From Amoebophrya sp. A120 (taxonomy: Eukaryota > Protista > Dinoflagellata): DNA of 64,000 nucleotides. Below, piece by piece: positions 5,201-54,050 of the stretch (the first letter of the stretch is position 1; every line of letters begins with the position of its first letter). Both the position numbers and the translations under genes were made by a program. Below the pieces are notes generated by a model. That model was given only the letters and a program-made list of their open reading frames with translations, was not told the origin of the DNA and did not search any database. The DNA lies in NCBI GenBank assembly GCA_905178155.1, contig CAJINV010000024.1, positions 181,964 through 245,963 of the forward strand, given 5' to 3'.

Positions 5201-8200
5201 GCGCAGCGCCGTCGTCCTGGCGTCGTTTCAAGAGCTCCACTTGTTCCGCACCACCGGTTGTAAGAGTGCCGAGAGCAGTCGTCGAGCTGTAGGAGTAGCT
5301 CTCTTGTTTCGCCAAAAGCGGTAAAAACGCCGTCTGATCGATGTATTCCTCTTCGTAAATGTCTGAAAGCCGGCGGCCCTTCCATTTCGTCGTCTTCCCT
5401 TTCATGTCTTCTTCATTGACCAGGTTCTTCGGTGTTTTCAGCAGCAGCTTCTGATGTCTTTTCTTGCTGGTAGTTCCACCACGACCTACTTCGCCTGGCT
5501 GCAAACTCGCAAAATCATTCTGAAGATCATCTCCTTCTGGCGTCTCCAAATACTTCAGCACCGTCTGCGCGTCCCACCGCCTTTCCCACCGCCACCGCAG
5601 CGTGACCTGCAGTAATGATACCAGATGGCCGAATAGCGCGGCGTCCTGCTCTTCCCACCTGCGGGACCTCGAATACAGAATTCGCACCCGGGAATCCGCC
5701 ACGGCGAACTGCGCCCGCATCCCGCAGCCCTCTAAATGCTCGTACGGCGCCCGCCCGTACAGCAATTGATATAGGATGATCCCCAGGGCCCAAACATCCT
5801 GAGGAAAATAAAACGCACCCACGCCAGAGTTGTAATGCAGATTTGCAAAGACAGGAAGACTTGTAATGCGCCTCGGCATGAGAGCCATTTCCAATCGTGT
5901 TTTGGAATTTGTGATGCTGTGAACAGGATGAGCAGATGAATCTGTGATGCGGCTGCACTTGCTAACCTGCACTACACTGCAAAGTGAAACTTGTCATGCG
6001 TGACTCACAAAACTCCTAGGTTTGTGTTGCAAAATCCCCATCCTGACTCTGGTGTGGGTACGTTTTTACTCAGGATACCAAACATCAGCCGCCGGGCGCA
6101 TCTTCAAACTCGCGGACCCCTCGTCCGGCTGGTAAAAAGCCTCGGGCGGCATGTAGCGGGGCGTGCCGCACTGGCGGTCGCGGGAAACGTGGGTGATCCC
6201 CTCATCCTTGTTGATCCCCCTCGCGAGGCCGAAATCAGAGACCTTCACGATGTTGTCCACGATGAGGAAATTCGCCGGTTTGAGATCAAAGTGGATCAAC
6301 CCGAGACTGTGGATGGCCGCGACGCCAGCGACCATGTCGCGCCAGAGATTGCGGATGTCGTAGATAGAAAAGATTTCGTAGTTTTTCCGAAGAAAGGAGT
6401 GCAGGTTGGGTATCGGAGGGGAAAGGAGGTGCGTTGGTTGTCCGATGGAGAGGATATTTTGTCATGCTCATCTATCACGTGGTACAAAATGGAAATGACA
6501 AATTACATGCGCCTGCGGCTGCACGACTCCTACGAGTCAATGAATATGCACAAGCTGCTTCTTGCCGCACACATCATGCATGCCATCTTCTTAATCGCGG
6601 TTTAGAATCAGAAAAACTTAACTATCTCTATCAAACAAACCAACGCAAGCATTATTCCACCCCATACCACAGTCCGCGAATTCCAGCAAAATGTGGATCA
6701 CCAAATCTTTTGGAAAAAATTTCGCTTCGCCGATCATCTTCACTACCCGGAGCTCGTCCACCGCGTTGTGTCTACCATTCTGGGCACTAGTTCCGGCCTT
6801 CGCTGCTCGATTCTTGTCCCGCAAAGCCCGCAGCCAGTTTACCTCCATGGCGAAGGAGCGCATTTGCCTCGCGTCCCGAGCATAGACGACTTTGAGTGCG
6901 TAGCGGGTAACGGATAACTGAGAACCTTGCTCGTTGGTTCGACTTGCACTGCTGCTGCTTCCATTGGGCTGACCACTTCGCGACGCATCATAATTGCAGC
7001 TATAGTTGCCCCCACGACTTCCCGCCGTTGCCGAGGTCGTAGTAGTCGATCCTCCATCTGCGACACACGTTCGCAGATCAACGCACTCGAACACCTCCGC
7101 CGACCCGCCCTTCCCGATCCGCTTCACAACTTCGAGCAATATAGTCGGCTTGTTGAAGTCCACGTGATGGCTGTCAACGACGTGTTCCCCCATGCAGATG
7201 ACCATGCCGGGGCCAACGCGGGCGGTGGCGGTCACGGCGATGTTTCTCCGCTGGATAAACGCAGCCGTGGAGAGTAGCGAGTCGTTTTCCCGGTACGAAG
7301 TCCGGCAGTCCTCGTCGTTGAAATACTCCGGTAGGTCGCTCGGTGAATTGAGAAAAGGGGCGTTGTGGCGGCCGTAGACGGGAATCGTGCTGCAGCCCGC
7401 GGGGGTGGAAACAACCTCAGCATAAGAACGGCGATCGGAAACACCGCGGAGGATGCCATCAGGCGCGGGAGGAGTCTCGACCTTTTGTTCCGCGCGTCTG
7501 GAAGCTATCGGCGCAGAATCCTCCGGGACGATAGGCGCGTGGCGGATTTCGGCCTTGGTGTCGTGGCTGCACCCTCCAGAGCTGGTAGTGTCACGAGGAT
7601 TTCTGATATGAAAGCCGCGACGTCCATATTTCTCCGCTTCAGGCTGAGCCTCTTCTTGATTCTGGTGAAGCACTGACTCCACATTTCGCTGTAGGTCGTT
7701 ACTGCTTCGTGTACCAACCACAGCCACTTTTGGCAAATCCGCCTGGTAGACGAAGTCTTGCAGTCCTTGAGGCTGCTGATCGTTTTGCCCAGCATTTTGG
7801 TGTCGCTCCTGCGGTGTGGCGGGCCGTGTGTCAACATTTTCGCAGTCGGCATTGCTGTCGAAACTGGTTTCCCTGTTTTGTTCCAGCCGTCCTGTGCCTG
7901 GGCGGGAGTTCTTGTGCTTGTTGTCGCGATAGGCATCAGTGAGGCCCGCATGGTCCTCAACATCATGTCTGACCCTGGGAGCAGCCACGGAATAAGATCT
8001 CTCGGAGGGGGTCTCCCTGTTCGGATTGTAGGACGAATATTGGTCAAGGTCATCTCGTGTCGCCGCAGGCCGGATTTCCACTTGGCCGGGGCCAGGGCGC
8101 CGCGCAGGAGGAGGAGTTCCACCACCTACATCGATTCTTAATATCACATCATCCTCAATCGTACTTGTCGCTGCCGGTCTCCTGGCATCGTTTTGGTCTT

Positions 8201-8723
8201 GGTAATACGAGCTTCCATAATTACCGGTGGGCAAAGTGGTGTTCACTATGCCGTCGTACGACGTCGCGTTATTTCGTTCATGGGCGCGAGGGTCACGTGG
8301 CCCAACAACGTCTCGTGCCGCTTGCCGCTCATACGCTGCCTCTTCTCGGACACCTCTTCCCGGTGTATGTTGTCCCACGTCGGCTCCAGCATTTGCGGCC
8401 TGTGCATGACAAACTTTCGGTTCGAAATCGAATGTGGTCGCAGTATGCAACGCCGACGTTGCTTGTGTAGGGACGGGGGCGACGGGTAAAGGGTAGCTGG
8501 GTACGTCATGCTCTTCTTGAACGAAGCGCGCACGGTTATTTTCGAAGCGTCTATTCTTGTTACCCGGCTCTGCTAAGTCGCGGGCGGGATTAGTAGCTCC
8601 ACATGGCTCTATGGCACCGTGCGGATCTGGATGGTGAGGGTTAAAATTTTTACGTTGGTCAGATGGAATCGCGGGTCGTGGGGGATTGTCGTTGAAATGG
8701 TGGTTGCGCCGGTCGTCGCTCAT
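2271..8723 (-). CDS. Mps1/TTK-like protein kinase with C-terminal TM segment and long low-complexity regions (3 exons, ~1967 aa)
   Basis: Exons 8723-6668, 6406-6079, 5790-2271 total 5904 nt and join in frame. Motifs: IGKGGSAEV, YALK, LEFADC|DL, IHFDLKPANFL, SDFGLA, QCGTPRYMPPEA, DVW|ALGIILYQLLYGRAPY. HxDLKPANFL and GTxxYMPPEA match the Mps1/TTK family. Confidence 0.85.
5795..6077. mobile_element. TAT-TIR introner, family B
   Basis: TIR catcctgagg..cccacgccagagt / actctggtgtgggtacgtttttactcaggata; DR ccaaa/ccaaa; splits DVW|ALG. Confidence 0.9.
6411..6666. mobile_element. degenerate TAT-TIR introner
   Basis: Ends tatcggagggg / ccaccccata; DR lost; removal of 6407-6667 gives C-D-L in frame. 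Confidence 0.7.
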
Positions 8724-9934
8724 AGGGGCCAGGTTGCGCCACAGTCAGAGGGAACACCAGTCACTGGATTTTAAGTAGGTAAAAATAAAGGGGTGTCGCT
8801 CCGTTTGTCGATGTCGATGTTCTGCCGTTCGTTATTTATTATACAACTTTTACTCGTCGAAAGAAATACTCGCAAACCCTTTTCGGGGCGGCGGATGAGA
8901 TACTACAACTGCATGCGCAAAAATGCGATCCTCGTGAAGAGGACTGCTCGTCCCGGATGCGTCTTTCAGCCTGTTCTCGCGCTCTTCGGATCGTCTCCAC
9001 CCGCGGCTACGAGATTGTGAAAACGCCTTCAGATGAGCAACAAGCTTGTGCTCCGTGCGGGTTTGGTGTTGGCCTCTTCTCGACTCGAAGGTAGATACAA
9101 CTGCTCCATGCGACGTGTCGGTCTCGGTGGGTTCTTCAATTGTACAAATAAACTCCTTTCTAAAGATGGAAAGTCGCAGAGCATTTCTTTATCTATGAAT
9201 TTATTGCGTGCTGAAAGAAACTGAAACCGGTGGGGTGGATGCTGAGTGTCTTACAAAATTTTTTCTGCTCGTCCGGCATCTACTTATCATATCTGGAAAA
9301 ATGAAACGGTGAAAAGTGAAAGCGGTTCTTCTTCTCTAGATTCATAACCCGTATATCGATAATTAAAACAATGTTGAGAGACCACAATAAAAGAGCTTCC
9401 AAGTTGTGCTACTCATCATACACTAAACTCCAGAAACATTGCAGGCTGTCAAAGGCAGTCATCTCTTGGAGGAATAGAATTATCTAGGGCTATGTCTACG
9501 TACTGAAACAATGGTCGCCAATATACCGCAACCACAACTGCCCGTGCCTGAAGCGATGTTGAAAAAACGATTGTCTTTATTGAAACACATAGAGTGGTGC
9601 TGAGACGATGCCACGACGACGAGAGGCGATCCGACAAAGCGACTAGATACTTACGAGTAGATTTTTGTTACGAAGCGATTCTAATTGCATTTCGTGAAAA
9701 GAAGCAGATGATTTTCACAGGCAAGATCAGTTTGGGCGATGAGAAGTCAAAAAAGGTTTTTCGATTTCGACTTTTGCGAATTAGTGTTCATCTTGAGCGC
9801 CTCGCACTACTAGTGCCATTTCTGCATGTCAAGGTGTGTAATTTCTATAAACTGCCAGCCGGAGATGCACTATGTTGGAAATGGATCACGGTGATGAACT
9901 ATGTTGGATGAAATGGATTGTATATGCGTCGGTC

Positions 9935-13445: not shown

Positions 13446-16400
13446 TTACTTGACCTCCTTCAAAAAGCGGAAATAGAGTTTCTTGGCCAGCAGCCGGTGC
13501 TTCTTTGACTTCGCGTACCAGGCGGCGTCGTGACCGTGGTGGCACTTCTGCTCCGGGTCGGCTCCGTAGTGGAGGATTAAGAAGTGGCACAGGTCTTCCT
13601 TCCCCGTTTTCGCCGCGTAGTGCAAAATGGTCTGTCCGTTGTTGGGCCACTTGTTGTCGAGTGCCTTCCAGCCCTGGTTGTTGAGCATCTTGAAGCACTT
13701 CTTGTACTCCGCCGGCACCAGCTCCTCGGCTTATCCTGTGCAAAAGTATCGCACTCGTAGTAATTGCATTTATGCATTACAAATCTCTTTCTCAAGGTAA
13801 ATCCGCATTACAAATTGAATTTGTAATGCTGGGCTAATTTGTGATGCAATTGATACTAGTACGATGCTTTTGCATTGCATACGGCTTCGTACGGAGACAT
13901 GATGTCACTCGCCTTGATTACTTTCTCCTGTATGAGAGTGCACAACTCGCCCTCCCCCTCATCTGTATTTTTGATTTTGCATGAACAGCAATACAAACAC
14001 TTGCACGAGTGGAGCCCCCTGCGCATGACAAATTCATGTGCCTAGTGTAAATAGTACTGTTTGGGCGCTGTCCGGAATCTGTGATGCATGATAGTGACGC
14101 GAGAAACCAATTTGATTTGGGATTTTGCATGAGAAATGAGAACGAGGGGGAGTTATGCAGTTTCATATCCTGGCCGGCCACGTTAGAAGGCATGCCGGAT
14201 TTATCAAATGTAAAAGTGTCTGGGTCTAGAAGATTCTGAGACTTGTCATGCATGTTTTGCATGACCCAGGACGTCTGTAATGCACGCCCTAGCATCACAG
14301 ATTTTTAGACGGCTTCCTGATGCCTACTCCGCATGACAAACGCCCTCCCCGCGTAGCACAAACTAGACCCCTGCTTTTGCTGGTCATGCAATACAGAGTC
14401 TTTTAGAGACCGAAGTTAGCATCACAAGTTCCAACCTTCCAGACCCCGACATTTTTGCATTTGATAGGATTTCTCATCCAGGAGGTCATTGCTGTTCGCG
14501 CCGTCGTCCAGCTTGCTCTGGGCCTGCGCCTTCTTAGCCGCTTCCAGCTTCTTGCGCAACTCCGGATTCTTCTGCAACTGGTACTTCCACTCCTTCGCGA
14601 AAACCTGTTCGTTCGCCGGATTCGAAAAATCGATGTCTTCCGCCGGAAAACTGACCATCAGGGCCGAGAACTCTTCGAAGAGCGAGTTTTTCTTCTTCGG
14701 GTTCGCCAAATCAATGGCCTTCTTGCCGAAATCGTCGATCACGTGCACCTGCTGCTTGATAATCGTTTCGTCCAGGTTGAGCACTAGGTAGTCGAAGAGA
14801 GGCTTGTTATTCTTTTTCGCCGCGTAGTGGAAGAAAGTGCCACCGCCGGTCTTGTGGGCCAATATGCATTGCGAATATGTTTGGGTCTGGAAACTTGTGA
14901 TGCAAGGACGGGGAAAATAGTGACTACACTGTAATGCGCTGCCAAGCATGACAAGTTTTTCCGTGGTTCTGCTTCTGAGTAGCGTACTCCGCATGAGAAA
15001 CTGCGTTTTTGCATGACAGGCGAGCGGAGCTCTTCGCGGCCACGGCGCAATACAGAGTTCAGAGTCCTGCCAGACTAGCACGACAAATCTCGCAATCAAT
15101 CTCCCAGACCCATACTTGTATTTGATAGCCAACTGCTGCTGGCAATTCTCGTTGTCAAACCCGAGTTCCTTGTATGCCAGCGCACAACTCCCCCTCCCCC
15201 GCATTTGTATTGCATAAGTACATACAACAGCATTACAAACGCCAGCGACCCTGGAGCCTGTGCACGACAAATTTATGTACCTACTGTATGGTACTGTTTG
15301 GGCTTTTGAATAAATTTGTCATGCAAACAGTGCCACAGGGCAGCGACTGGAACTGGGGTTTTGCATGACAAATAAGGGGGAGGAGGAGTTGTGCACTGTC
15401 ATACCTTGCACATCCGGAACATCTTCCCGTAAAAGTCGCACAGACCAAAGTCGTGTTCCTCGTCGTAGATCTTCGTGCCGTCCGACCGGCCCGATTTGTT
15501 GGACGCCATGGACTATGAACTGCAAAAGTATCGTACTCGTATAAATGCATTACAAATTTCCTCAGCATGAGAAATAAAATTTGTAATGCTGATTTACCTT
15601 TAACAAAAGGATTTGTAATGCATGATTGCAATACGAGTACGATACTTTTGCACAGGATATGGACTCTTTGCTCATCATGGACTGCCGCAGCTGGTCCTTG
15701 TTCGGGACCAATTGGATCATGATCTGCCCGTTGCTGAATATGCATTGCAAACCTGTCTGGGTCCTCTGGAAGGATGCAACTTGTCATGCTATATCCGGAT
15801 CGTGCAAAGATCTGTGTTGCATGAGTGCCAAAATAAGCTGTCCACTTTCGACGAAGTTGGGAGGACACTTCTCATGCAGGATACTAGGCATGACAGAGAC
15901 CACCTCACAGAGTCTGTCATGCTAGGTCCCGCATTCCAGACCTCGTGGGTCATGGAGAGAAGATTGCATGACAAGTTTACATTTTTCTAGATGTAGACGT
16001 ATTTGCATTTGATACTGAAGGGGTTGTCGCTAAACATCGAGGTATTCACATTGTCGTCCCACGAAATGGATCGATTGTTCAGGAAGGCGTTGTTCGTCCC
16101 ATTCATTTATGCATTGCAAATATGTCTGGGTCTGGAAGGTTATATATAACTTGGCATGCTAAATCTCGATCGTGCCAAAAATTTGTGTTGCGTGATTACC
16201 AAAAGATGTCCACTTTTGAACAAGTTCAGCGGCAGTTTCTCATGCAGGATAGGTATGATAGCTGTTTCACAGAATCTGTCATGCTAGGTCCTACATGCCA
16301 GACGTCATGGGTTATGAAACATCTACATTACAAGTCTTGCATTCTTCCAGGCCCAGACATTTTTGCATTTGATATCATCGGACTGTCGTCGAAATTAGGA

Positions 16401-18160
16401 CCGTAGAAACCACCTCCATTCATGTTGCCAAAAGGACCACCGGCGGCACTGTCCACCGTGATGCCTCGACTGATGGGGGACGACGGGGCCGCCGTTATCG
16501 TAAGGGAAAATCCCCCCTCCCCGTATCGAAAAGGTATGTCTCAGAAAATTTGCAATGCAGATTTGTGACCACGAATCGTCTCTGTCTTGCAAAAACGCAA
16601 CTCCACCGGCTCCGCCGCAATCTTCTGCAGGCGGTTTGTAATGCTGTTGGCCCTACAGACTAGACATTTGCCATGCTCAGCGTCCAGCCCAAAACATCTA
16701 CTCAGTCTTAGTATAGGCCTATAGAAGTCCTCTCCAGCAAGACAAATCTGATTTGTGTACGCAAATCCAGCATCAGAAACTTCGGCTTCATATGGAGAGG
16801 AGGGATTTTTACTTTTGATAGCCGTGGAAGGCGTATCCGGCCAGTAATTCTGCATGTTGCCGCCAGAATTGGCGTCGGCAGGGACTTATGCATTGCAAAT
16901 ATCGATCTGGGTCTGGACGAAAGGTGGAACTTGTAATGCTAGTCTTACACTCCTGCGAAATGTGTATTGCATAAAAGCAGCAAAAGCGCCAAACTTTCGT
17001 CATGCACAGTCGACGCAGTTTGTGATGCGCACTACGCATGCGAAAGCGCTCCAAAGGTTTGTCATGCTTCACTGGACTACTTAAAGGCGCACTCAATCAT
17101 GACGACTCAGCATCACAAATTTCCACACCACCGAGATGACATATTTGCGGTTGATAGGACCAAGCTCTTCCCCATCATCGCGACCATGTTATTATTGTTG
17201 TAGTACAGATTGTTCATGTAGTTTTCTTTTCCCAGCATCTGCATGGCCTGGTGATGCGAAAACCCGTTGTGCTGTTCCTTGGTCTGCGTCCGCCAATTCG
17301 CGTCATTCAGGTTGGCGAAATCAGTGCCGGCATTTTCCTATGAATTGCAAAAGCATCGTACTAGTATGAATTGCATTACAAATTGGCTCAGCATGACAAA
17401 TGGAATTTCTCATGCTGATTTAGCATGAAAAAGCTAATTTGTCTTGCAGAACTGCAATCGGTAGTTGTACCAGTACGATGCCTTTGCACCGGATATTTCC
17501 CCGCCAGCGCTGAAGTAATCCGAGTTCCAGTACTCCAAGGGATATCCTGAGCAAAAGCGTGCCCACCCCAGAGTCAAGATGGGGATCTCGCAACACAAAT
17601 CCAGAAGTTGTGGCTGTAGCGCATGACAAATTGCCGCTCGTAGTGTAGTTCAGGTTAGCGAGGTCATCCGCATTACAAACCCAGCTGCTCATCCTGTTTA
17701 CAGCATCACAAATTTCAAAACACGATTGAAAATGCATTTCATGGGGATGCGCATCACAAGTTTGCTTGTCGTTGCCAATCTGCATGACAACTATGGCGTG
17801 GGGACGTTTTTACTCAGGATAAGGGGGCCGCGTCGCGCTGCCCCGCCTGCAGCTGGATCGGAACCTGGTGCAGAATATGGATTGCAAAAATGTCTGGGGC
17901 TGGAAGAATGCAACTTGTCATGCTGAATCTGAATCATGTAGAAATCTGTGTTGCATGAGTGCCAAAAGCTGTCCACTTTCGACCAATTTTGGAGGGAGTT
18001 TCTCATGCAGGATAGGCATGGCAGAGACCTCGCAGACTCTGTCATGCTAGGTCCCGCATTCCAGATCTCACGAATCATGGAAAACCTGCATGACAAGTTT
18101 ACACTCTTCCAGACCCAGACATATTTGCATTTGATACAGAAGCGGTTGCGCCATTTTCAT
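13446..18160 (-). CDS. ankyrin-repeat protein, 14 exons separated by 13 introners
   Basis: Continuous frame after removing 13 elements: MKMAQPLLHQVPIQ...GGTFFHYAAKKNNKPLFDYLV...NGQTILHYAAKTGKEDLCHFLILHYGADP...KEVK*. Two ankyrin-type HYAA motifs. Confidence 0.85.
13732..13881. mobile_element. introner, family C (short)
   Basis: tatcctgtgcaaaagtatcg / cgatgcttttgcattgcata; DR cggct/cggct. Confidence 0.9.
13931..14167. mobile_element. introner, family D
   Basis: tatgagagtgcacaactc / gagttatgcagtttcata; DR tcctg/tcctg. Confidence 0.9.
14202..14466. mobile_element. introner, family A
   Basis: tatcaaatgtaaaagtgtctgggtct / agaccccgacatttttgcatttgata; DR ggatt/ggatt. Confidence 0.9.
14863..15127. 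mobile_element. introner, family A
   Basis: TAT..gggtctgg TIRs; DR gccaa/gccaa. Confidence 0.9.
15173..15403. mobile_element. introner, family D
   Basis: DR ccttg/ccttg; predicted intron has GT..AG ends. Confidence 0.9.
15514..15659. mobile_element. introner, family C
   Basis: tgcaaaagtatcgtactcgta / tacgagtacgatacttttgca; DR tggac/tggac. Confidence 0.9.
15739..16014. mobile_element. introner, family A
   Basis: TAT/ATA ends; DR ctgaa/ctgaa. Confidence 0.9.
16108..16374. mobile_element. introner, family A
   Basis: TIRs; DR tcatt/tcatc. Confidence 0.9.
16496..16820. mobile_element. introner, family E
   Basis: tatcgtaagggaaaatccc / gggatttttacttttgata; DR gccgt/gccgt. Confidence 0.9.
16887..17156. 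mobile_element. introner, family A-like
   Basis: TAT/ATA ends; DR ggact/ggacc. Confidence 0.85.
17339..17495. mobile_element. introner, family C
   Basis: TIRs; DR tttcc/tttcc. Confidence 0.9.
17543..17821. mobile_element. introner, family B
   Basis: tatcctgag / ctcaggata; DR aggga/agggg. Confidence 0.9.
17876..18136. mobile_element. introner, family A
   Basis: TIRs; DR cagaa/cagaa. Confidence 0.9.
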
Positions 18161-19733
18161 CGATGGTTGCGCGAAGGAAGGTACGCGTTTTGAAGGTTCG
18201 CTGTCAAATGTAAGAAGTCGTTTACTAGTACAATGCTGCTACGCTTTACCTTACGTAAAAATCCGCTTTTTGTCTTTGTCGTCTGTAGTGATCGTAGTCT
18301 CCGCTTACGTTTTAGTTTTATTTTTATGTTACACGGTGGAAATTATAACGACCCAACAATATTATGCCACAACGCAAGAAGGTAATGCTACTTTTCGCCT
18401 GGTGTCCTCGAGTTAAGAAGTGTAAATGTTCTGCGAAACCAACGCACGACTTCTTCTACTAAAGCACTTCGTTCAACTTCTTCGCAAAAACTTTACCACT
18501 ACTTCAACTTCGGTAGATAATCAATAAACCAGCTGCGAAAAGTATTCACAACCGTCCCATTTTCGCTTTTTTTAGAGTGTTTAGGACTACCTTGCTGCTC
18601 TTGGGGGAGCGTTCCTATATGTATGTTCGTCTTCCGTCTTCCTTCCTGTTTTTGTTGTGGAATGATTTGGGATGCGAGATGCGCACCATAGGCATATTGG
18701 AGCAAGATCTGCAATGTTGCAGAAACTGCGAAGGATAATGTAAAAACACCGATATTAATATCAGTCAGAAACTTTTCCCTCGCTCGTCGTCTCTCTTCGC
18801 ATTTTCTTGTCGTGCTCTGCTTCCGCCCAGCACGCACTTTTACAGCGTTTTTGCTTGCATGATAAAGAAAGGCGCTTTTTATTTGCTGCTCAAGGACGCA
18901 GGTTTCTCTCGAGGAAAAATCAAAATGCGCGGCATGAGTAAAGAACACTTTTTGCTACGACCGGGGCGAGGTCACAAGAAGTTCTTGTGGTCACAATACT
19001 GAAGTCTATTCCTCCCACTTTTCTTTCGTTTTGGTTTTTCGGTCCCAAGATCAAAATATTCCAAAAGTAAAAACTAAAACCCCTGATCGAAGAAGTACTT
19101 TTCCATAGCTTGTTGCCTCCAGCAGGATCACAAGGATAACTCGGCAATGCAAGAAACTCCTTTTTTCGTCTTGCTGAGAACAAAGGGATACTCATACTCA
19201 TAATTGATTGCTGGATTACGTTGCTGTGAAAATGATGAAAGTGGTAAAGTGTAGTAGGTTGCACCCAAGAAGGCGAACCTCCTGGGCGCTTGTTTGTGCC
19301 TTTGTCTAAAATTAAAAAAATCGTGTAAGATTTATTCAACATCGAGCAAAGTAATCAGGTTTCGGTAGTACCTCAAGATTTTTCGCTGTACTAAATACAT
19401 AACATCATGGTGGGTGATTTTATTGTTGATCGAGGAGTATCGTCTTGCCCTCGTCTCCTGTACTAGTTACAGTTTTGCTCCTTTGTCATGCTCTCCCGGC
19501 ACGACAAGGGGGAGAAACAAACTTGTCCGTAAAGATGTAAAAGTTCAACAAAAATTTGGCATGCATCAAGATCAACTTCCAAATAGCCAGAAGTCAAGAA
19601 AAAGTCGTCCAGTGCCGCTACTTGTGAGCGCCACGGGCGAGGACATCCTGACAACAAACTCTGAGACGTTCTGAAAAAAAAATCGTGCTTACAACTAGAC
19701 GTTTTAGTTACCCTAGTGCATTTTTTTACTTTT

Positions 19734-28918
<9,185 letters not shown>

Positions 28919-28936
28919 TTTCTGGCTGGAGGTGTC

Positions 28937-35214: not shown

Positions 35215-35778
35215 TTATTTTCTGGAGTGGAAATACTTTTCCAAGGTGATGCCCTCCGCTCCTTGTTCACCTTCATTTTCATTGTCCACAGCCGGTGGCG
35301 GAGGCGGAGCAGCCATCATTTTCATCTTCATAGCTTTCTGACCCGTATGCATTGCAAATGTGCCCGGGATATGCCTTGCAACTCTTTCTGTGTCTGGACA
35401 TAATGCGCTTCCTGCAGCAAGCAGCGATCTATGCATAGGCAGAAAAGGTAGAAGTATTTGTACTTGTGGACAAAGAGGACAGGATGTACAGAGCTCACTC
35501 TCATGCAGAGCAGTAGCATCAAAAGTGTCTCAAGTGTTCCAGACCCAGAAATACTTGCACTTGATAACGGAGACTCTGGGAAACCTAAACTCGCGTGTCG
35601 TCAACGCAGAACTTCCGTCTCACAGCAGGCCGGTGCGGAGCTGCAGCTCTGGCTATGTACCTATGCGAAGCCTTTTGGAGAACGCGATGGGATCTGCAGA
35701 AGAAGAAGCGACAGCAAAGTAGACCTCCCTTTCCAGAGTACCGGGACATACTTGCATTGGATAACCCATCTTCGCCAT
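35215..35778 (-). CDS. short ORF or 5' part of a hypothetical gene
   Basis: MAKMG|QKAMKMKMMAAPPPPPAVDNENEGEQGAEGITLEK... after removing the element; downstream structure unresolved. Confidence 0.4.
35346..35763. mobile_element. composite introner (418 bp) with an extra internal TIR
   Basis: tatgcattgcaaatgtgcccgg / ccgggacatacttgcattggata; DR acccg/accca; a second family-A right end sits at 35537-35566. Confidence 0.8.
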
Positions 35779-39700: not shown

Positions 39701-42621
39701 CTGGTGGCGACGCAAGTGCCAGCAATACACGGAACGTTGAGTCGTGGTCTTCTGCACCTGTGCAGTCCACTCCCTCCCGCACAGATCCAAGTCCAACATA
39801 AGAAGTGTAAGTATGGTGTTCCACTTATGCGTTCCACTACGAAGATCATATTGAAAATAGTAGTCAAGTAAGTCAAGTAAACACACTTTTTTTTGTTCGA
39901 TAGTCCACCAGCTGCTTGGCCTCGGTCTGCGCGGCTCGCACGACACTTTCTGCGTCGGTCTGCCTGGCCCGAATGTCGGCCAGCACCTCCCTCTTCGCCT
40001 TCGCCGCCTGTTCTTCAAACGTGCTCGACAGCTTCTCCAGTTCCGTCTTTGCGTGCTGCTGAAGGGCCGAAACCGCCGCTTCTGACGCTTTGTCGAGGTC
40101 CCCGAGACTTTCCTGCACCGTTTTTTCGATCTGTCCGGCCAGGGTTGCACCCCGGACCTCGCCCTCGTGCTCGGGCGACGCGAGCCAGCCAGTTTGATGC
40201 AAGTGTAACTGGTGGCCACCGGCGGCAGGCGCATCCCCGACCGCGAACCCTGCATCCGCTTCTCCGGCCGTTGGTACCGCCGAGTGGTCCAATCCCGCGT
40301 GTTGAAGGTCCCGCTTCACCTCGAGGACGCACATGTCGATAAGAGATGTCATGGTATGGCGGAAAGTGGCTCGCAGACTGTCGCACACCCGGTCGTCGAA
40401 AGTGTCCGTAGGCAGCTTCACCGAGGTATCAACGGAAGACAAATGCATCTGGGTCAGGAGAGTGATGGCGCGACGTACTTGTGTTTACACAGACATCTGT
40501 GTAAAACTTCATCTTGCATCATGAGCTCCAATAAATGAAGTTGCAGCACGCTTCTGGTTTTCTACAAAGATACGAGGTTAACAAATAATATTCGTATGCG
40601 GGACACCAGGCATGTCAAGACCTACGAAGAGGCTGTACTTTGCATGCGTAACCGCCCAAAAAAAAAGGATGACAATTATAGTAAGAACTGCACTTCTGCT
40701 CCAGAAGACCCAGTCGGAAAAAAATTTGCAGTGGATACGAGACGAGGTCCACCAACTCCTCCGGCACCGCGTTGGGAGCTCCATCAGACATTGAGGAGGA
40801 GGAACTACTAGTCCCCGCCCCGATCGGCGGACGACCGTTGTGGAGCGCGGCGACCGCTTCTATCAAAAGGAAAAGCCACCCTTTCCCATGTCGAGAACGA
40901 AATTTGTGATGCTGTATTTTTTGCGTCCACAAATCGGATTTGTGTTACTGGAGAGGACTGCAGGCCCCTACCGAGCATAAGACGAGCGCTTTTTGTCTAG
41001 GGGCTTAGCATGAAAAACCGCCTATCAGCATGAGCATGACAAACCGCCTGCATAAGGCGGCGGGGCCTGTGGAGTTGCCTTCTTGCAAGACAGATGCGAT
41101 TGGTGGCCACATATCAGCAACACAAATTTTCGAAAACGCACCTGATCAATATGGGGAGGGGGGATTTTTCCTTTTGATACCTTCCGCGTGCTTGATACTG
41201 GCTCGAATGCTCTGGTGCAGGTTGTCCAGGAGCGACTCGTAATCCGTCAGGTGGCCCGCGCACAACCGCCGGAACTTTTGGGCGAAAGTATTCGCTGCCT
41301 GCTCGATCGATGCGCTCCTGGTGTCGGTGTGCAAGTCCTCGAAAATAGCGCCCGCCCATCGATTGGAAATATGTGTGTGTGTGTCGGGAAAAATGCAAGC
41401 AACTTTGTCATGCACATTTTGCATGACCCAGCATCACAGATTTTGAAGTAAGGCTTTCTTGATACATCTACTAGTGCCCTTATTATGTCTTTGCGCATCA
41501 TGATTAGACGTTCCCATACTGGAGTTCTTTTGCTGCTCATGCACATGCAATACAGATTTCTATAGAATCCAAAGGCAGCATGACAACTTGCACTCTTCCA
41601 GACCCAGACAACTACATATGCGCAATGCATATTGCCGGATCTTCGCTTATTGCTGCCCGCCGGTCTGCGATGGCCTGTACAGCGACTGCCACTCCCCGGT
41701 CCAAGTCGCGGAGCCGCGAAAGGCTACTGGTCACCTGAGACGATTCATGTAAGACTTTCTTCGATAACTCACCTTTTGTCTTACTCGTAGGAACTGAAAT
41801 GGTTATTGCATTTGAGAACAAATAGATGAGGCGGGAAAAGAGCATAAGTACTTAGTGTCGTCCGGCTATACAGTGTTGCGTATCCATTTCCACGACGGGC
41901 TAAATTTTTCTCATCTTTGGAAATCCTTTAAAAATGTACTTACGAGTTAGAGTACGTTCTCTGCCTGCAGTGTGTCCTTGACGGTATTGAAGTGGTCCCG
42001 AAACTTGCGGTCGTACCCCTGGAACCGGCGGTCGTACTTGGCCAGCACTTCCATCAGACTCTTGTACACGTTACCGTGAAACTGCAGTCTGCCGTCTCTT
42101 TCCTCATCGTCTGCGTCGATTACCGAGTCGCTTTCACTAGACCCGGCATCTTCCCCCGTACTGAGATCCCACTTTTCGATGATGTCTTCCATCCGCTTCA
42201 ACAGTTTGGACAACTCGGTCGCACTGTACGTGAGGAACTGGCCCGTCTCACTTTTGACCGCCAAGGCCAAGCTGCCAGGTCCTTCGGTGTAAAACAACCG
42301 CTGCTCCTCCTCCTCGGCGACGGTTCGGGCGGCCCCTGGCTGCGAAACGGACGGCGAACCTGCGCCGGCGGAGGACCTCGCGACGCCCGCCTCGAAATCG
42401 ATCGCGTCCCGCATGTCGCTCGCAGACCCCAAGTCGCGCACCAGGTTCGCGGCCTGCTGCTTCACCTGTATCGCTGCTTGCACCTCCGCGCGCGATGGCA
42501 GAGTCGAAGATGCGTTTACGTTGTCCAATGGCTGTCCCGCGTGCGACGAAGACGACGTTGAATTGGCGCCCGCAGAGGACGACTTCGATGTGGCAGCCGG
42601 GAGTTGTGCTGTGGACGACAT
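36738..42621 (-). CDS. hypothetical coiled-coil protein with a C-proximal TM helix; 11 introners plus an unresolved intron
   Basis: MSSTAQLPAATSK...; Ala/Glu/Lys-rich exons join in frame; TM-like KFFIVLIVVFVAMLGNLVVL. The intron at ~41785-41955 and the stop position are uncertain. Confidence 0.7.
36758..37046. mobile_element. introner
   Basis: tatcctccggaaaagcac / gtgcatctcggtaggata; DR agaag/agaac. Confidence 0.8.
37158..37424. mobile_element. introner, family A (diverged)
   Basis: tatcca / tggata; DR decayed ccatg/cgccg; frame restored on removal. Confidence 0.75.
37491..37839. mobile_element. introner (diverged)
   Basis: tatcgtaacggaaagacac / gtgttttcctctcgata; DR decayed; frame restored (EQL|DG). 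Confidence 0.75.
38106..38385. mobile_element. introner, family B
   Basis: DR cgagg/cgagg; reverse-complement homologue of 5795-6077. Confidence 0.9.
38514..38786. mobile_element. introner, family A (diverged)
   Basis: TAT/ATA ends; DR ctcaa/ctctc. Confidence 0.8.
38855..39137. mobile_element. introner, family B
   Basis: tattctgtgtaaaaac / gtttttccacagaata; DR cgtct/cgtct. Confidence 0.9.
39244..39517. mobile_element. introner, family A
   Basis: TIRs; DR catcc/catcc. Confidence 0.9.
39602..39902. mobile_element. introner, family F (diverged)
   Basis: tatgcaaaagcaaaagtg / cacttttttttgttcgata; DR tttca/gtcca; frame restored. Confidence 0.75.
40442..40737. mobile_element. degenerate introner
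   Basis: Right end tttgcagtggata is clear, left end eroded (aatgcat); frame restored (LVS|SVD). Confidence 0.6.
40861..41179. mobile_element. introner, family E
   Basis: tatcaaaaggaaaa / ttttccttttgata; DR gcttc/ccttc; inverted homologue of 16496-16820; predicted intron is GT..AG. Confidence 0.9.
41357..41631. mobile_element. introner, family A (diverged)
   Basis: DR ccgcc/ttgcc; frame restored (DPA|GAIF). Confidence 0.75.
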
Positions 42622-43995: not shown

Positions 43996-46986
43996 CTACG
44001 GTGCGGCTCCCTCCGTGAAGCTTGCGGCACCCCCCGCGAAGCTGTCAATCGCCACCTTGCAGTGCTGGACGTACGTGGAGTCCACCTTGGATTCGGCCTT
44101 CGCGACCACGTCCTTATCAAATGTAAAAGTGTCTGGGTATGGAAGATTCTGAGATTTGCCATGCATGTTTTGCATGACCCAGGATGTCTGTAATGCACGA
44201 CCGCGCATCACAGATTTTGAGCGGGCTTCCTGATGCCTACTCCGCATGACAAACGCTCTCCCCGCGTAGCATCAACTAGACTCCTCTTGCTGGTCATGCA
44301 ATACAGATTTTTCTACAGTCCAAACTTAGCATCACAAGTTCCAATCTGCCAGACCCAGACATTTTTACATTTGATAGTCCTTGAGCTGCCGCCATTCCTC
44401 CGCGGAAAGAAATCCGCTCTGGTTCTCAAACAGCGTGGTGAGGGATTGCAGCAGGTGTTTGGTTTTCGAAACGCGCCGGAACGACGGCTCCGGGTACACG
44501 TTGAACAGAGGGTATGGGAGGGTAAACACAACTTTCCACAAAGGGAACTACTTCCCGCGGGTGCTATTTGATGGCACCAGCCAACATTCGAGTGAACAAA
44601 TAAGTTCCGGCTAATTTTACTGTGGGAGTTTGAGTTTATTAGTCGAAGTACATCTTCAATAATGCATTTATTAGCTTCAGGCACTTCGAGCACAAAGTGC
44701 AAAAAAAGCTGCAGCACCCCAGGACTTTTAGCAGGTGAAAAAGATCATGCGCAGAACAAATCCAGCCGTCAGTAATAGGGCAAAATCCTTCTCCTGAAAG
44801 TTGCATCAAGTGGATAGCTTCCGAAACGATTTCACGGCAAAAGCGACCTGGGATTCTCGGTCCAGTTTGAGCACGACCAGTTTCTGCTTCTCAAACTCTT
44901 CCTTGACCTGTTGTGCGAATACTGCATTCGTGTCTTCAGTGATAAGTGCGAGTCCGGTAAAAAAACCTAGCTTCCATCAATAAGATCTAGCATTCAAGTT
45001 GTAGGATCGGAGAACAATGCCAAATTTGTACAACTCAGGCGAGTGTATGCGTACCTTAAACAAATCCCCGACTGCCACGTCCGTTTTTTTCTGCCGCTCG
45101 TTCAGCTTTTCAATCGTCGTGTTCTGGACGGTAAGCTCGGTCTGCACTTCATGCTTGATTTGGTGTTGCGATTCTTGCAGTTGCGCGAATTTTTGGTTAA
45201 GCGCCACAAATATGCTAGCTTCAGGTAAGGAAACGTCAAAACGAGACTCGCCTGTCACGCAGCAGAGAATTCCAGTTTCGACGCCGATAGTAAGCCTGCT
45301 GGCACTAAAAACGAAAAGGTTGTGGAACGAAAGTGCCTAGAGCAATCAACATCTTTCCAACAAACGGCATGTCGAAACGTTTGCTTTTGTATTTCAGAAA
45401 AATTTGTCATGCGCCATCTAGAAATGCTCGGTCCAAAAACTGCGTGGTATCACTTGTGCGATTCACACAGTTTTTTCGTTTTTGACGCTGCCCCCTCTGT
45501 CACTCTGATAACCAGCTCTTCCCGGTGCTCCGCCTGACATTCCTTTAGTGCCTCCTGCACCTATCAACCGCAAATGTGCCTGGGTCTGGAAAACCAGCAA
45601 CCTCTATTGCTCGGCTAGCATGACTGGAAGTGGAAACGGAAAATCTGTATTGCATGACCGACATGAGCGCGACCTCTTTCGTCATGCAAACCCCGCAGGT
45701 CGTAATGCGCGCTCCGCATGAGAAAGTGCCGACAGAAAAATTTGCTATGCTAGAAGGCATGCGAGACGAGGATGCTGAGTCATCACAACCCAGCATCACA
45801 AGTTTCGTTTAGGCCCAGACGCAGTTGCATTTGATAGCACCTTCTCAGCGACGATTTCGCTAATGTAATGCTCGGCCCTACTGTTCAGCATCTCCTGCAC
45901 CCCCGCCGGCGCGCCGGCGTCCACCTCCGCCGTTCCGACGTAGGCCATGGCTTCTTCCATCGGCGTGCCGATCTGTTCCCCCGACGCGGCCAGCAGGTTC
46001 TGTTCCACCGACCCGGCCATGGCTTCTTCCATCGGCGTGCCGATCTGTTCCCCCGACGCGGCCAGCAGGTTCTGTTCCACCGACCCGGCCATGGCTTCTT
46101 CCATCGGCGTGCCGACCTGTTCCCCCGACGCGGCCAGCAGGTTCTGTTCCACCGACCCGGCCATGGCTTCTTCCATCGGCGTGCCGACCTGTTCCCCCGA
46201 CGCGGCCAGCAGGTTCTGTTCCACCGACCCGGCCATGGCTTCTTCCATCGGCGTGCCGACCTGTTCCCCCGACGCGGCCAGCAGGTTCTGTTCCACCGAC
46301 CCGGCCATGGCTTCTTCCATCGGCGTGCCGACCTGTTCCCCCGACGCGGCCAGCAGGTTCTGTTCCACCGACCCGGCCATGGCTTCTTCCATCGGCGTGC
46401 CGACCTGTTCCCCCGACGCGGCCAGCAGGTTCTGTTCCACCGACCCGGCCATGGCTTCTTCCATCGGCGTGCCGACCTGTTCCCCCGACGCGGCCAGCAG
46501 GTTCTGTTCCACCGACCCGGCCATGGCTTCTTCCATCGGCGTGCCGACCTGTTCCCCCGACGCGGCCAGCAGGTTCTGTTCCACCGACCCGGCCATGGCT
46601 TCTTCCATCGGCGTGCCGACCTGTTCCCCCGACGCGGCCAGCAGGTTCTGTTCCACCGACCCGGCCATGGCTTCTTCCATCGGCGTGCCGACCTGTTCCC
46701 CCGACGCGGCCAGCAGGTTCTGTTCCACCGACCCGGCCATGGCTTCTTCCATCGGCGTGCCGACCTGTTCCCCCGACGCGGCCAGCAGGTTCTGTTCCAC
46801 CGACCCGGCCATGGCTTCTTCCATCGGCGTGCCGACCTGTTCCCCCGACGCGGCCAGCAGGTTCTGTTCCACCGACCCGCCGGAGGGCTTCTCTCCAGAT
46901 GGAATCCAGGTAATATCGTCCTTCCCCGCGTCCGGTTCTTCGGCTTTCATAGCCATGTCTCCAGTGTCGCTTAATATCTGTGGCAT
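43996..46986 (-). CDS. hypothetical protein with 13 x 24-aa acidic repeats and a coiled-coil region; 4 introners and at least 1 GT-type intron
   Basis: MPQILSD...(GSVEQNLLAASGEQVGTPMEEAMA)13...EKV|QEALK...EL|VALNQKF...FRK|LFNVYPEP...LKD|VVAK...AAP*. Confidence 0.75.
44115..44376. mobile_element. introner, family A
   Basis: DR gtcct/gtcct; closely similar to 14202-14466. Confidence 0.9.
44513..44816. mobile_element. highly degenerate introner
   Basis: Only tatg / gata ends remain; the boundary rule restores the frame. Confidence 0.55.
45211..45510. mobile_element. degenerate introner
   Basis: tatg / gata ends; DR acaaa/accag; frame restored. Confidence 0.65.
45562..45836. mobile_element. 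introner, family A
   Basis: TIRs; DR gcacc/gcacc. Confidence 0.9.
45943..46878. repeat. 72-bp coding tandem repeat, 13 copies
   Basis: Units identical except one base (Val to Ile) in two copies. Confidence 0.95.
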
Positions 46987-48685: not shown

Positions 48686-51132
48686 CTAATGGGACCCCTC
48701 CCACAACCCCACTCCCTGCAAGGCGAGACGCGTGCGGAAGCCCAAGCGAAAACCGTGCTTCGTAGCCATGACCGCTCGCACAGTTTTCTCGAGGGTACTC
48801 TGGTCCGCCCGGGCTACATCGCCCTCGTCGGCGATCACCGAGCCGATTTCGATATGCATTGCAAAAGTATCCCAATATCAGTACTGTACTTATGAGTACT
48901 GCATCTCGACGAGTTTGATGTCATGCTGGTCCAAGTAGAAGTGCTTGCCTGCTTGGAAGCCACGAGATTTATTTGTTCATCTCTGCATGGTGGTTGCACA
49001 AATTTGTAAAACTTTTGCGATCCTTTTGCACAAGATACTCCAGCATCTTGTTTCGCGTGGTCTTGTCTGCTATCAAATGTAAAAATGTCTGGGTCTGGAA
49101 GATTGGAACTTGAGATGCTAGCTTTGAACTCTAGAAAAATCTGTATTGCATGACCAGCAAGCAGAGTCTAGTTCGTGCTACGCGGGAAGGGCGTTTGTCA
49201 TGCGGAGTAGGCATCAGGAAGCCAGCGCAAAATCTGTGATGCGCGGTCGTGCATTACAGAAATCCTGGGTGATGCAAAACATGCATGACAAGTCTCAGAA
49301 TCTTCCAGACCCAGACATTTTTACATTTGATATCTGCGACCATCGCCGCGATGGAACCCACGAGATCTCCGACCTCGCCCCGTTGCTGGCGACTCGACAG
49401 AAAGGCCAACTGGATTTGATTTTTTTTTTTGCCTACCACAGCATACTTAGCAAGATCGATGATTCAAATTGCATTTCATGCGCCCTCCAACCTCATCTTC
49501 AACCAACAAATAGTACTTTCTTTTCCTGCTGCAGCAGCTCGTACTGGAAGGCCGACCGGTCGCTGGCCTGCATCAGCTTGATCTCCTCGATTTTATCAGT
49601 GAAGCCCCGCCATCCTGAGTAAAAACGTCCCCACCCCAGAGTTGTCATGCAAATGCATTTTGTCGTCGTGTTTCGAAATTTGTCATGCTCCAATCGGCAT
49701 GCTGCGCTGGATCTGTGATGCTGCTCAACTAGCTAAACAGGATCACACTATGAGGCCAAATTTGTCATGCAGAACTCCCAAAACTTGGAGATTTGTGTTG
49801 CAGACTTCCCATCTTGACTATGGTGTGGGGATGCTTTTACATATGATACCCGCACGATGGCGCTCATCCGCTTCTCCAGGTCCTTGTGCAGAGCCGCGAT
49901 CTGCCGCTCCACCGCCATCTTCGCATTCTGGGACTTCGTAGCTGATTCCGCCCTCAGCGCCATCGTATGGATTGCAAGAATGTCTTGGTCTGGAAGATTG
50001 TAATGCTGTCTCTGGATTCTAAAAAAAGGTGTATTGCATGACCAGCAAGAGCTCTCCAGTTTGTGCTATGCAGAGAGGGCATTCCTCATGTGCTGGTAGA
50101 GGCATCGCAAAGTCCTCTAAAAATATGCAACGCTAGGGCATGCATCACAGACATCATTTCATAGGTCATGCAAAATATGCATGACAAACCTGGCAATCTT
50201 GCAGCCCCAGACATTTTTGCAGTTGATACATCGCCTTCGCCCCCAACTCCTTCTCGAACGCGCACGAAAGCTCTTCCTTCAAAGCGGCCTATCATATGTA
50301 AAAACGCCCCCACCCCATAGTCAAGTTGGGAACTTAGCAACACAAATCCAGAACTTTTGGGAGCCACGCATGACAAGTGGCAGTCCGTAGTGTGGTGCAT
50401 GTTAGTAAGGACAACGGCATCACAAATCCATCTGCTTATCCTGTTTGCAGCATTACAAATTCCAAAGCACGACTGGCAATGCCTCTCATGGAGATGCGCA
50501 TTACAAATCTTCCTGTAGTCGCAATTCTGCATCACAACTCTGGGGTGGGGACGTTTTTACACAGGATACGGCCACCGCCGTCGTCACCTCTTTCTTCACC
50601 TCCTCCTGGGTGAAGATCTTCAGTTTGCCTTCCAGCTCCTCTGCGATCTCCTTCTTCAGGGATTCCCGGAGAGCCGGGACCTCGTCTCGACCGAGGTACA
50701 GTTCGGGCTTGGACCGCAGATACTCCGGTGCCGCGGCCTATCAAATGTAAAAATGTCTGGGTCTGGAAGAATCCAACTTGTCATGCAAATTTTGGATTCT
50801 AAAAAAATCTGTATTGCATGAGCAGCAAAGAGAGCCAAGTTTTCCTACACAGAAAGAGCATTTGTCATGCGGTATAGGCATCAGGAAGCCCTCACAAAAT
50901 CTGTGATGCTAGGGCATGCATCACAGACATCAGGAGTCATGCAAAATGTGCATGACAAGCCTGGCAATCTTCCAGACCCAGACACTTTTACATTTGATAC
51001 GGCCGCAGCCTTGGCCGGCGCGCGCGTCTCTCCTTGCGTCGAAGCCGGCTGAAACGCGGGAGCGAAGGTTTTTTTCACTCCCCCACGCAACAGCGGCGTC
51101 AGGTTCAGGTCACGAGACGGCGAGTCCGGCAT
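48686..51132 (-). CDS. hypothetical coiled-coil protein; 6 introners and GT-AG intron 49410-49516
   Basis: MPDSPSRDLNL...AAPEYLRSKPEL...LRESLKKEIAEELEGK...ML|EIGSVIAD...WEGSH*; the start may lie further upstream. Confidence 0.75.
48853..49037. mobile_element. introner, family C (diverged)
   Basis: tatgcattgcaaaag / cttttgcacaagata; DR ttcga/ctcca. Confidence 0.8.
49071..49332. mobile_element. introner, family A
   Basis: Long near-perfect TIR; DR tctgc/tctgc; inverted copy of 44115-44376. Confidence 0.9.
49611..49848. mobile_element. introner, family B
   Basis: TIRs; DR cccgc/cccgc. Confidence 0.9.
49966..50228. mobile_element. introner, family A
   Basis: TIRs; DR catcg/catcg. Confidence 0.9.
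50290..50568. mobile_element. introner, family B
   Basis: TIRs; DR cggcc/cggcc. Confidence 0.9.
50739..50999. mobile_element. introner, family A
   Basis: TIRs; DR cggcc/cggcc. Confidence 0.9.
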
Positions 51133-53007: not shown

Positions 53008-54050
53008 TCAGTTGCCAGGACCGGAACCAACTTGCGACGGTCTGACCATCTTCTGCAGGTACCGCGGCATATCAACTGCAAAGATGTCTGGGTCAAGCAA
53101 GAAGATCATGTTGTTTTTGCATGACACTGGAGGGCTGGCGTGAAAGCCCTAGCGTCGCAAGTCTCGAGAAGATTCTGCAATGCCTAATTCGCATGACAAA
53201 TCCGCTATTTAGTTAGTCACAGAAATATATGACTTTTGCTGCTTATGCATGAGACATTTGTGTGTGTTGTGAGGTGCTCACGACAAGGAAGTGCACTTCT
53301 TTCCAGACCCAGACATATTTGCAAGGCATAAGGAAAAAAGCATGACAAAGACGTAGTTTTGAACAACCTGGTGGGAGGGGAGTCCTTTCCAATCGCATAT
53401 CTAGCAGGCTTATGCATTGCTAACACCATCTGGGTCTGGCAATTTGAAACTGCGATCTTGTTACATCTGTGTGAAATCTGTATTGCGTGACCACCAAAAG
53501 TCGCAGCTTCTTTTGTCATACAGAAACGCAGTTTTTCATGCGGATGACAACGGGTTCTGCAAGCTTGTCGCGCTCGGCTGCATGCCTCGGAAGCGTTTTC
53601 ATTATCCACAGTTCAACATCACAAATCTCCAAACCCAGACATATTTGCATCGGATAAGGCTGGGCCTGTATGTACTCCACCACGGGCTTCGTTCTGTTAT
53701 CCAAGGAAAGAGCATTTGGTCCCGTAACAATCAAGCTGCTTCCCCGTATCCAGCGGAAATATGCCTGTGTCTCGAAAGCGATGTTATGCTGGTGTTTGAA
53801 TGACAAAGTTACTGCGGTATCCGGCCGAACACGACAAAATTTGCAGTGGTTCTATTTATCATAGTGCGCATGAAAAATCTATTTATTCTTGTCTGACCGC
53901 CACAGAGGAACGCCACTAATGCGCAACATGCATGACAGAGTTGAGATGCATCGAAGTTCAGTTCGCGATTCGCGCTATTTTCCAGAGGACCCAGGCATGT
54001 TTGCATTTGATAACCCGTCCCGAACTACCATGCTCCGTCCACCACCAATT
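53008..54050 (-). CDS. possible small gene or gene fragment interrupted by 3 introners
   Basis: One frame stays open after removal (..GSSLIVTGP..QAQP|ARYAIG..CFFP|RYLQKMV..GN*), but no clear start. Confidence 0.3.
53070..53330. mobile_element. introner, family A
   Basis: tatcaactgcaaagatgtctgggtc / gacccagacatatttgcaaggcata; DR decayed. Confidence 0.8.
53411..53656. mobile_element. introner, family A
   Basis: TIRs; DR aggct/aggct. Confidence 0.9.
53747..54012. mobile_element. introner, family A-like
   Basis: TAT/ATA ends; DR ccccg/acccg. Confidence 0.85.

Follow-up and report, generated by a model that had tools for sequence, protein, structure and literature searches.

A 64,000-nucleotide stretch of the Amoebophrya sp. 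A120 genome (contig CAJINV010000024.1, positions 181,964 to 245,963; hereafter the window, numbered from its first letter) is crowded with short elements that have inverted repeats at their ends and interrupt its genes, among them the gene for GDP-mannose 4,6-dehydratase (GMD), from whose transcripts they are removed. These elements are introners of the published A120 type; intron class, organism and end motif had all been described before. The data indicate, with a probability of about 0.7, that they spread as non-autonomous DNA transposons and are spliced by a machine that measures from a predicted hairpin. A fixed splice register and indifference to strand are what the window adds to this published intron class, and both additions are modest.

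Elements were collected by a scan for TAT...ATA pairs followed by a profile scan and manual curation, which gave 60 in the window, 57 of them between positions 5795 and 54012. These 57 measure 146 to 418 bp each and sum to 14,685 bp, or 30% of that interval, in agreement with a preceding reading of the letters alone (the sequence-only reading), which had counted about 57 elements in the same size range and roughly 15 kb. It had also described imperfect terminal inverted repeats (TIRs) of the form TAT-N7-AAA and 5-bp direct repeats. We find that motif at 82 of the 118 ends of 59 elements, TAT at both ends of 52 of the 59, TIR positions 1 to 3 and 11 to 13 nearly invariant, and positions 4 to 7 often unpaired (in 26 to 40 of the 59). 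The 5-bp direct repeat is exact in 29 of the 57 elements and agrees at four or more of its five bases in 45. Among TAT..ATA pairs with TIRs matching at 12 or more of 25 positions, exact flanking repeats numbered 25 at 5 bp, one at 4 bp and none at 6 bp, versus 0 to 1 exact 5-bp-repeat pairs in each of 20 Markov-1 control sequences. In old copies (those starting at 6411, 37158 and 37491) the repeat has decayed and TAT/ATA is retained. Three initial pairings of ends (40427-40572, 39597-39902 and 53070-53656) were replaced because frame or end evidence spoke against them. In the element at 40427..40737, the right end at 40572 is internal and false, and a perfect copy of the left repeat comes after it; the reading frame and the match to the annotated protein P0121 hold with the long pairing alone.

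BLAST comparison of element interiors groups 33 of the 60 into six families (11, 7, 6, 4, 3 and 2 members, here lettered A to F), in line with the earlier estimate of at least six, and leaves 27 in no family. Fifty of the 57 elements lie in long restored reading frames, one in a GT-AG intron, one nested inside another element and five in short candidate frames; the sequence-only reading was thus right that most interrupt coding frames, and its figure of 56 was too high as a supported number.

Removal was followed most closely in GMD (coding sequence 19734..28918, minus strand). Taking out 15 elements, one of them in the 5′ untranslated region, together with three GT-AG introns yields a protein of 388 amino acids, 329 of which (85%) are identical in the orthologue from Amoebophrya A25 (P0009). 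The protein closest to one GMD exon is P0003 of A120 (98%), whose first 160 residues are all identical to the model (160/160); with P0121, described below, it assigns the DNA to A120. The 14 coding elements lie at 19778..20033, 20134..20480, 24469..24677, 24740..25015, 25059..25302 (family C, reversed), 25360..25539, 25615..25870 (C), 26351..26638 (B), 26688..26949 (A), 27380..27660, 27706..27997 (A), 28043..28274, 28416..28629 and 28677..28893 (E; it splits the motif TALIT|GITGQ), and the 15th at 28937..29190 (C).

Four sequencing runs were compared over 24170-29400, which is where the read-level junction evidence lies; elsewhere junctions were judged from annotated or homologous proteins. 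Contigs of 2.1 kb from runs X5 and X7, which stem from one sample, consist of GMD exon pieces without 13 of the elements and without one repeat copy for each; those at 24469, 24740, 26688 and 28937 are among the missing. One of them, X7 record 15, matches the model minus the 13 elements and 5 bases apiece in four segment distances (409, 5, 82 and 81) and in the total of 1184. These contigs also lack the GT-AG introns and so behave as mRNA. Contigs of the DNA run X1 (possibly the source of the window itself) cross 24651-25117, 25278-25641 and 27544-28486 with no differences and at a depth of 43 to 47, like unique DNA, and in doing so span the elements at 24740 and 25360 whole. In all, 30,897 X1 contigs match the 24170-29400 stretch, as expected for high-copy ends. 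These 13 GMD elements are therefore removed at the RNA level, and excision with one repeat copy restores an intact protein, both as the sequence-only reading had proposed. In the raw RNA run X9, the GMD exons had almost no coverage (depth in 4 of 30 bins), and no junction evidence came from it. About 140 of its reads match one family A end (26687-26948; 90 to 95%) with a foreign flank, which points to an element kept in an abundant transcript from a different locus or strain. The annotated protein P0003 continues into the element at 26688-26949, absent from the transcript contigs, and ends at 176 amino acids.

RNA-level removal probably extends to the elements outside GMD, since taking out each one with 5 bases opens long frames in other genes as well. 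The protein kinase gene (2274..8744, minus strand) becomes a frame of 1974 codons after removal of two elements, one at 5795..6077 (family B, exact repeat) and an old singleton at 6411..6666 (repeat 0/5). Conserved motifs of GMD and of the kinase are indeed split, as the earlier claim of interrupted catalytic motifs had it (EFADC|DL and, by the element at 5795, ADVW|ALG in the kinase); the kinase motifs HFDLKPAN and DFG, however, sit within one uninterrupted exon. An ankyrin-repeat protein gene (13449..18238, minus strand) yields 532 codons once 13 elements are removed, and the model is colinear with its homologue P0126 (181 of 375 residues identical). Its elements are at 13732..13881 (D, reversed), 13931..14167 (E), 14202..14466 (A, reversed), 14863..15127 (C), 15173..15403 (E), 15514..15659 (D), 15739..16014 (A), 16108..16374 (A), 16496..16820 (F, opposite to the one at 40861), 16887..17156 (no family), 17339..17495 (D), 17543..17821 (B) and 17876..18136 (A).

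A third gene (36740..42620, minus strand), without a Pfam family, gives 612 codons after removal of 11 elements; the only protein match of one of its exons is the A120 protein P0121, to which the model is identical over about 570 residues and across 10 element junctions. The elements lie at 37158..37424 and 37491..37839 (repeat 2/5 in both), 38106..38385 (B), 38514..38786 (C, reversed), 38855..39137 (B), 39244..39517 (C), 39602..39902, 40427..40737, 40861..41179 (F) and 41357..41631 (A, reversed). The eleventh, at the 3′ end of the gene (36758..37046), is one into which P0121 reads, and its removal is putative. A further gene has six elements in a frame spanning 48689-51471: 48853..49037, 49071..49332 (A; TIRs matching at 25/25), 49611..49848 (B, reversed), 49966..50228 (A), 50290..50568 (B) and 50739..50999 (A). 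Three other elements lie at 44115..44376 (A, reversed), 45211..45510 (repeat 3/5; its removal extends the frame) and 45562..45836 (exact repeat).

The splice register can be read wherever the two repeat copies differ, as the base kept in mRNA or protein tells which copy it came from; 15 of the 28 imperfect repeats were informative. All 15 junctions allow four bases to be kept from the upstream copy, so that the intron is N + TAT...ATA + NNNN (the 1+4 register), a fit with a chance probability of 8e-5 under uniform registers. In GMD, the element at 19778 needs at least four upstream-copy bases (to give the Ala of the orthologue), as does that at 27380 (a stop codon arises otherwise), the elements at 24469 and 25615 need at least two and that at 26351 at least three, while those at 28043 and 28416 take their fifth base from the downstream copy (judged by where the RNA pieces end, and by Leu68). 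In the P0121 gene, at least four upstream bases are needed at 37491, at least three at 37158 and at least one at 38514 and 40427; 39602 allows only three or four, and 40861 and 41357 no more than four. The kinase element at 6411 has no repeat left, and there only the 1+4 register yields the conserved hinge Asp of all three aligning homologues (a fourth match did not align). Since the two offsets add up to the 5-bp length of the duplication, a cut in this register restores the exon exactly.

Although all the host genes lie on the minus strand, both orientations occur among the members of a family. Opposed pairs include 5795 versus 38106 and 44115 versus 49071 (each 92% identical), and opposed members are found even inside single genes (25059 versus 25615 and 28937 in GMD; 38514 versus 39244 in the P0121 gene). 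A pattern search of a second assembly, JACKZZ01, recovered 147 loci (0.42 Mb) holding the window's families at up to 95% identity. Of 285 outer copies there, 140 had a clear frame strand, as judged from open reading frame (ORF) length and not from RNA, and the 106 of these that could be assigned to a family were oriented forward in 55 cases and in reverse in 51 (20 versus 21 for family A). TAT stands at both ends of 129 of the 140 oriented copies, and the short copies show an exact 5-bp repeat in 236 of 302 cases, with one at 4 bp and none at 6 bp. No JACKZZ01 locus recovered is orthologous to the window; one (L019) holds a different dehydrogenase-fold gene. Three others (L053, L012 and L079) carry the window's families in or beside Rpb1, SNF2 and chaperonin genes.

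The elements share an internal 9-mer, GCATNACAA, which was picked by eye from the elements, so that its enrichment is descriptive: 109 of its 121 exact matches fall inside elements (7.1 versus 0.25 per kb), and with at most one mismatch it is found in 59 of the 60. The 9-mer was not found in the searched parts of the A120 introner paper (Farhat et al. 2021, PMC7789003). Further matches to GCATNACAA near 8400, 12500-12640, 19480, 33160, 55200, 60330 and 62720 may mark decayed copies.

Conventional splice signals are at background. At the 1+4 register, GT..AG ends occur in 2 of the 57 elements (15173..15403 and 40861..41179), much as the sequence-only reading had counted (about 2 of 56). In JACKZZ01, 39 of 140 copies start with GT (background G, 28%), 12 of 140 end with AG and 3 of 140 do both. 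Intron position +2 holds U in 56 of the 57, and the two ends of the 140 oriented JACKZZ01 copies have the same composition, with full strand symmetry. Three candidate signals were discarded: a G enrichment at intron position +1 (23 of 57, p = 0.11; at background in JACKZZ01), a 5′/3′ asymmetry at TIR position 4 (20 versus 7 in the window, p = 0.02 uncorrected; 33 versus 31, hence not reproduced, in JACKZZ01) and a branch-point-like TTGAT, which holds a fixed place only in TATCAA-type ends. Folding, with crude shuffles as the control, predicted a terminal stem for 58 of the 60 elements in the sense direction and for 57 in antisense, and the hairpins of two examples folded with z scores of −7.5 (25059..25302) and −4.0. 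Rfam gave no matches in the window.

Together, the fixed register, the removal of both orientations, the absence of a GT or AG preference and the common 9-mer favor splicing measured from the hairpin, which agrees with the TIR-guided removal suggested by the sequence-only reading. The steps we propose are as follows. An integrase-like DDE transposase acting in trans would insert the elements either way round, with a 5-bp target duplication; in the pre-mRNA, the two element ends are predicted to pair; and cutting one base ahead of TAT and four beyond ATA, as supported at the 15 junctions, would restore the original exon. Recognition would depend on the stem and its TAT/ATA bases, since no other feature occurs on both strands and persists in old copies. 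If pairing and cutting are as proposed, the resident U2-type spliceosome becomes a somewhat better than even candidate for the catalyst, the stem and TAT/ATA then replacing U1 and GT-AG recognition. We slightly favor such a modified spliceosome because its parts are present in A120, U1 was not found there, and +2 is U in 56 of the 57 introns.

A possible, if doubtful, alternative keeps the same elements and the same 1+4 geometry and assigns the cutting to a non-spliceosomal, structure-specific endonuclease and the joining to an RNA ligase, for which tRNA-splicing or IRE1-like chemistry offers a model. The lack of any GT or AG preference and the full symmetry of the ends in the 140 oriented copies are as this reading would have them, and because GT-AG introns share the gene, one spliceosome would have to work in two modes. 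For Euglena, whose introns are suspected of such a route, stems at fixed offsets are described and a separate machinery is proposed (Nomura et al. 2025, PMC12501133; review PMC11282704; in the parts covered). The nearly universal U at +2, as in a GU donor, argues for the spliceosome instead; no candidate enzyme was seen, and adaptation of the spliceosome is reported for tunicate non-canonical introns in the parts of that review covered.

The 1+4 ruler itself could be an illusion if the splice position floats anywhere within the 5-bp repeat and the hairpin merely brings the repeats together. The legends of Farhat et al. 2021 (PMC7789003), in the parts of the paper covered, describe splice sites as "variable" with respect to the hairpin, at 1 to 5 bases from it; perfect repeats (29 of 57) show no register, and the informative bounds are mostly one-sided. 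We nevertheless regard a floating position as improbable, because all 15 informative junctions fit one register, the element at 6411 is still cut at 1+4 without a repeat, and that at 27380 would yield a stop codon at any smaller register.

Several points weigh against hairpin-measured splicing of mobile elements as we propose it, beyond the published wording on variable sites. For most junctions the register is limited from one side, so that a mixture of registers would also fit; seven of the constraints come from the annotated protein P0121 and not from reads, and at two elements the annotation is wrong (P0003 at 26688, P0121 at 36758). A codon-likelihood test of the register over 30 mismatched JACKZZ01 positions gave no discrimination. 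Read-level support comes from one gene and from contigs whose RNA status is presumed. Folding of sequences chosen for their inverted repeats is partly circular, and since TIR positions 4 to 7 are often unpaired, the terminal TAT/ATA helix is weak. No transposase was found in the ORFs of the window and of the JACKZZ01 loci or in the long copies that were scanned.

Two further explanations would place the events outside RNA splicing. Internal eliminated sequences of ciliates are excised from DNA during development, and a similar removal here, with transcripts made from a rearranged copy, would account for TA-type ends and precise excision; the joints inspected were the best 15 of 1,091 and contigs drop rare variants, so that rare DNA excision could escape view. 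DNA contigs nonetheless cross whole elements without a break and at single-copy depth, unlike what such eliminated sequences would give, and an independent assembly (JACKZZ01) holds elements in genes such as Rpb1 and chaperonin, which makes somatic excision, a possibility the sequence-only reading had raised, very improbable. That the genes are dead and the elements ordinary insertions of MITEs (miniature transposable elements with inverted repeats), as two annotated proteins reading into an element might suggest, has next to no probability, given transcript contigs without the elements, contrary to the retention expected of pseudogenes, and a full-length GMD model 85% identical to its orthologue.

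In the parts covered, Farhat et al. 2021 (PMC7789003) describe 29,850 A120 introner copies in families, with an inverted repeat of TAT, seven variable bases and three A, a hairpin, direct repeats of 3 to 5 nucleotides at the boundaries (5 bp in an example) and no transposase in A120. The window elements share with them removal from RNA without GT-AG, the TAT-N7-AAA repeat, hairpin-forming capacity, the 5-bp repeat, family structure and the lack of an internal transposase. Because that description matches in ends and repeats, the class is already known; the sequence-only reading, which called it not wholly new, was correct and understated the case, since the published A120 introners, with their motif, are the very class seen here. 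Its statement that the transposase and the splicing machinery are unresolved still holds in the literature covered. The same paper, in those parts, reports most spliceosomal proteins and U2, U4, U5 and U6 in A120, with U1 small nuclear RNA undetected, leaves the border position unknown and uses "orientation" only of genes. Unlike the variable border described there, the window's junctions fit one register in 15 of 15 cases. The literature searched, including two reviews and a 2022 introner survey, nowhere states, in the text covered, a fixed register or an orientation for these elements, points on which figures and supplements may bear.

Other systems resemble the window elements in part. In the sections covered, euglenid nonconventional introns have the form N3CDG...CH′GN5-6|R, with spacers of 3 and 5 to 6 bases (Nomura et al. 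2025, PMC12501133; review PMC11282704). They are alike in lacking GT-AG, in having a terminal stem at fixed spacing from both cuts, in coexisting with canonical introns, and in TSD-like repeats (TSD, target site duplication), a suspected MITE origin and unknown machinery; they differ in sequence (N-TAT...ATA-N4 here), belong to an unrelated lineage and have been shown to give circular products. The non-canonical introns of Fritillaria borealis, as presented in the parts of that review covered, are MITE-derived, with TIRs and TSDs, an AG-AC/AG-AT bias and an adapted U2 spliceosome; the window elements share the TIRs, the TSD and the non-GT-AG ends and, unlike them, show no dinucleotide bias except the U at +2. 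They differ also from U2-type spliceosomal introns, having a GT donor or AG acceptor only at background frequency.

Lacking an ORF, lying in random orientation and combining TIRs with a strict 5-bp duplication, the elements would have been inserted as non-autonomous cut-and-paste transposons, for which an integrase-like DDE enzyme is our best guess. A Pfam scan of the 131 longest of the window's 197 ORFs found no transposase or integrase family, as the sequence-only reading had stated for this DNA, and 120 of 321 long ORFs from the JACKZZ01 loci (0.42 Mb) gave no transposase. Long copies with the same TIRs and a transposase ORF, for which it had suggested a search, did not appear: four long JACKZZ01 copies (504 to 1148 bp) have no ORF of more than 149 codons. 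One copy of 972 bp (L053:3001-3972) has perfect TIRs and no ORF of more than 86 codons.

In the parts covered, which include 56 of the 58 A120 rows, Gozashti et al. 2025 (PMC12130899) leave most A120 families as TIR DNA elements of "Unknown" type, with automated TSD calls mostly of 2 to 6 bp and mixed splice sites; family 38, whose ORFs resemble integrase regions of Copia/Gypsy, is assigned to Ginger ("5-bp TSD, TA/TA Termini"). Compared by description only, the window copies share its TA/TA ends and 5-bp TSD, family 38 being about 808 bp long and the window copies 146 to 418 bp and without ORFs. IS3EU/GingerRoot elements (PMC10045372, PMC6839031) likewise have TA...TA termini and TIRs, with an integrase-related DDE transposase and, in the text covered, a TSD of mostly 6 bp. 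The window elements are not filed there, because their TSD is 5 bp (and of 302 JACKZZ01 copies none has one of 6 bp); no transposase was found for them, and they act as introns, as which IS3EU/GingerRoot are not described in that text. The TG...CA termini given for Ginger1 and Ginger2 in the text covered also set these apart from the TA...TA ends seen here.

If genome-wide, the 1+4 offset and the indifference to orientation reduce the "highly variable splice sites" of some 30,000 such introns to one simple rule. Should that rule hold, it would permit re-annotation of the genome, in which two annotated proteins run into elements, provide exact substrates for lariat-versus-circle experiments, and parallel the Euglena spacer rule, which was found genetically, pointing to convergent structure-guided splicing. 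A bolder extension, which we consider unlikely, is that pre-mRNA is also spliced by a second system, independent of the spliceosome, which recognizes a hairpin closed by TAT/ATA on whichever strand it lies and makes its cuts 1 and 4 bases outside. Its ruler would be tuned to the 5-bp duplication of one integrase-like transposase, leaving tens of thousands of passengers, old or nested, invisible to genes, and GCATNACAA would be a putative binding site of the transposase or of a splicing factor.

The remaining elements and repeats of the window are as follows. A 3.8-kb canonical GT-AG intron of GMD (20552..24382, minus strand) holds a 203-bp tandem array (20549-24180; about 17 units with a 100-N gap) and the family D element at 24204..24352, the one found in an intron and not in an exon. 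The canonical GT-AG introns at 25956-26288 and 49410-49516 have an A-rich run rather than a pyrimidine tract before AG. Short candidate frames accommodate the elements at 31350..31672 (beside an assembly gap), 53070..53330, 53411..53656 and 53747..54012, and also the outer member (35346..35763) of a nested pair, whose inner element (35370..35566) sits 24 bases into the terminal repeat of the outer one. Three elements lie just beyond the 5795-54012 interval: a probable one at 54236..54565 (repeat 1/5; no frame found) and two at 60721..60916 and 60953..61111, the latter with an exact repeat. Four tandem copies of a 309- to 315-bp unit, without an Rfam match, stand between genes at 10048-11279; after the assembly gap come an 11-bp microsatellite and a 9-bp repeat (31750-32170); and at 45943-46890 a 72-bp coding tandem repeat encodes about 13 near-identical units of 24 residues.

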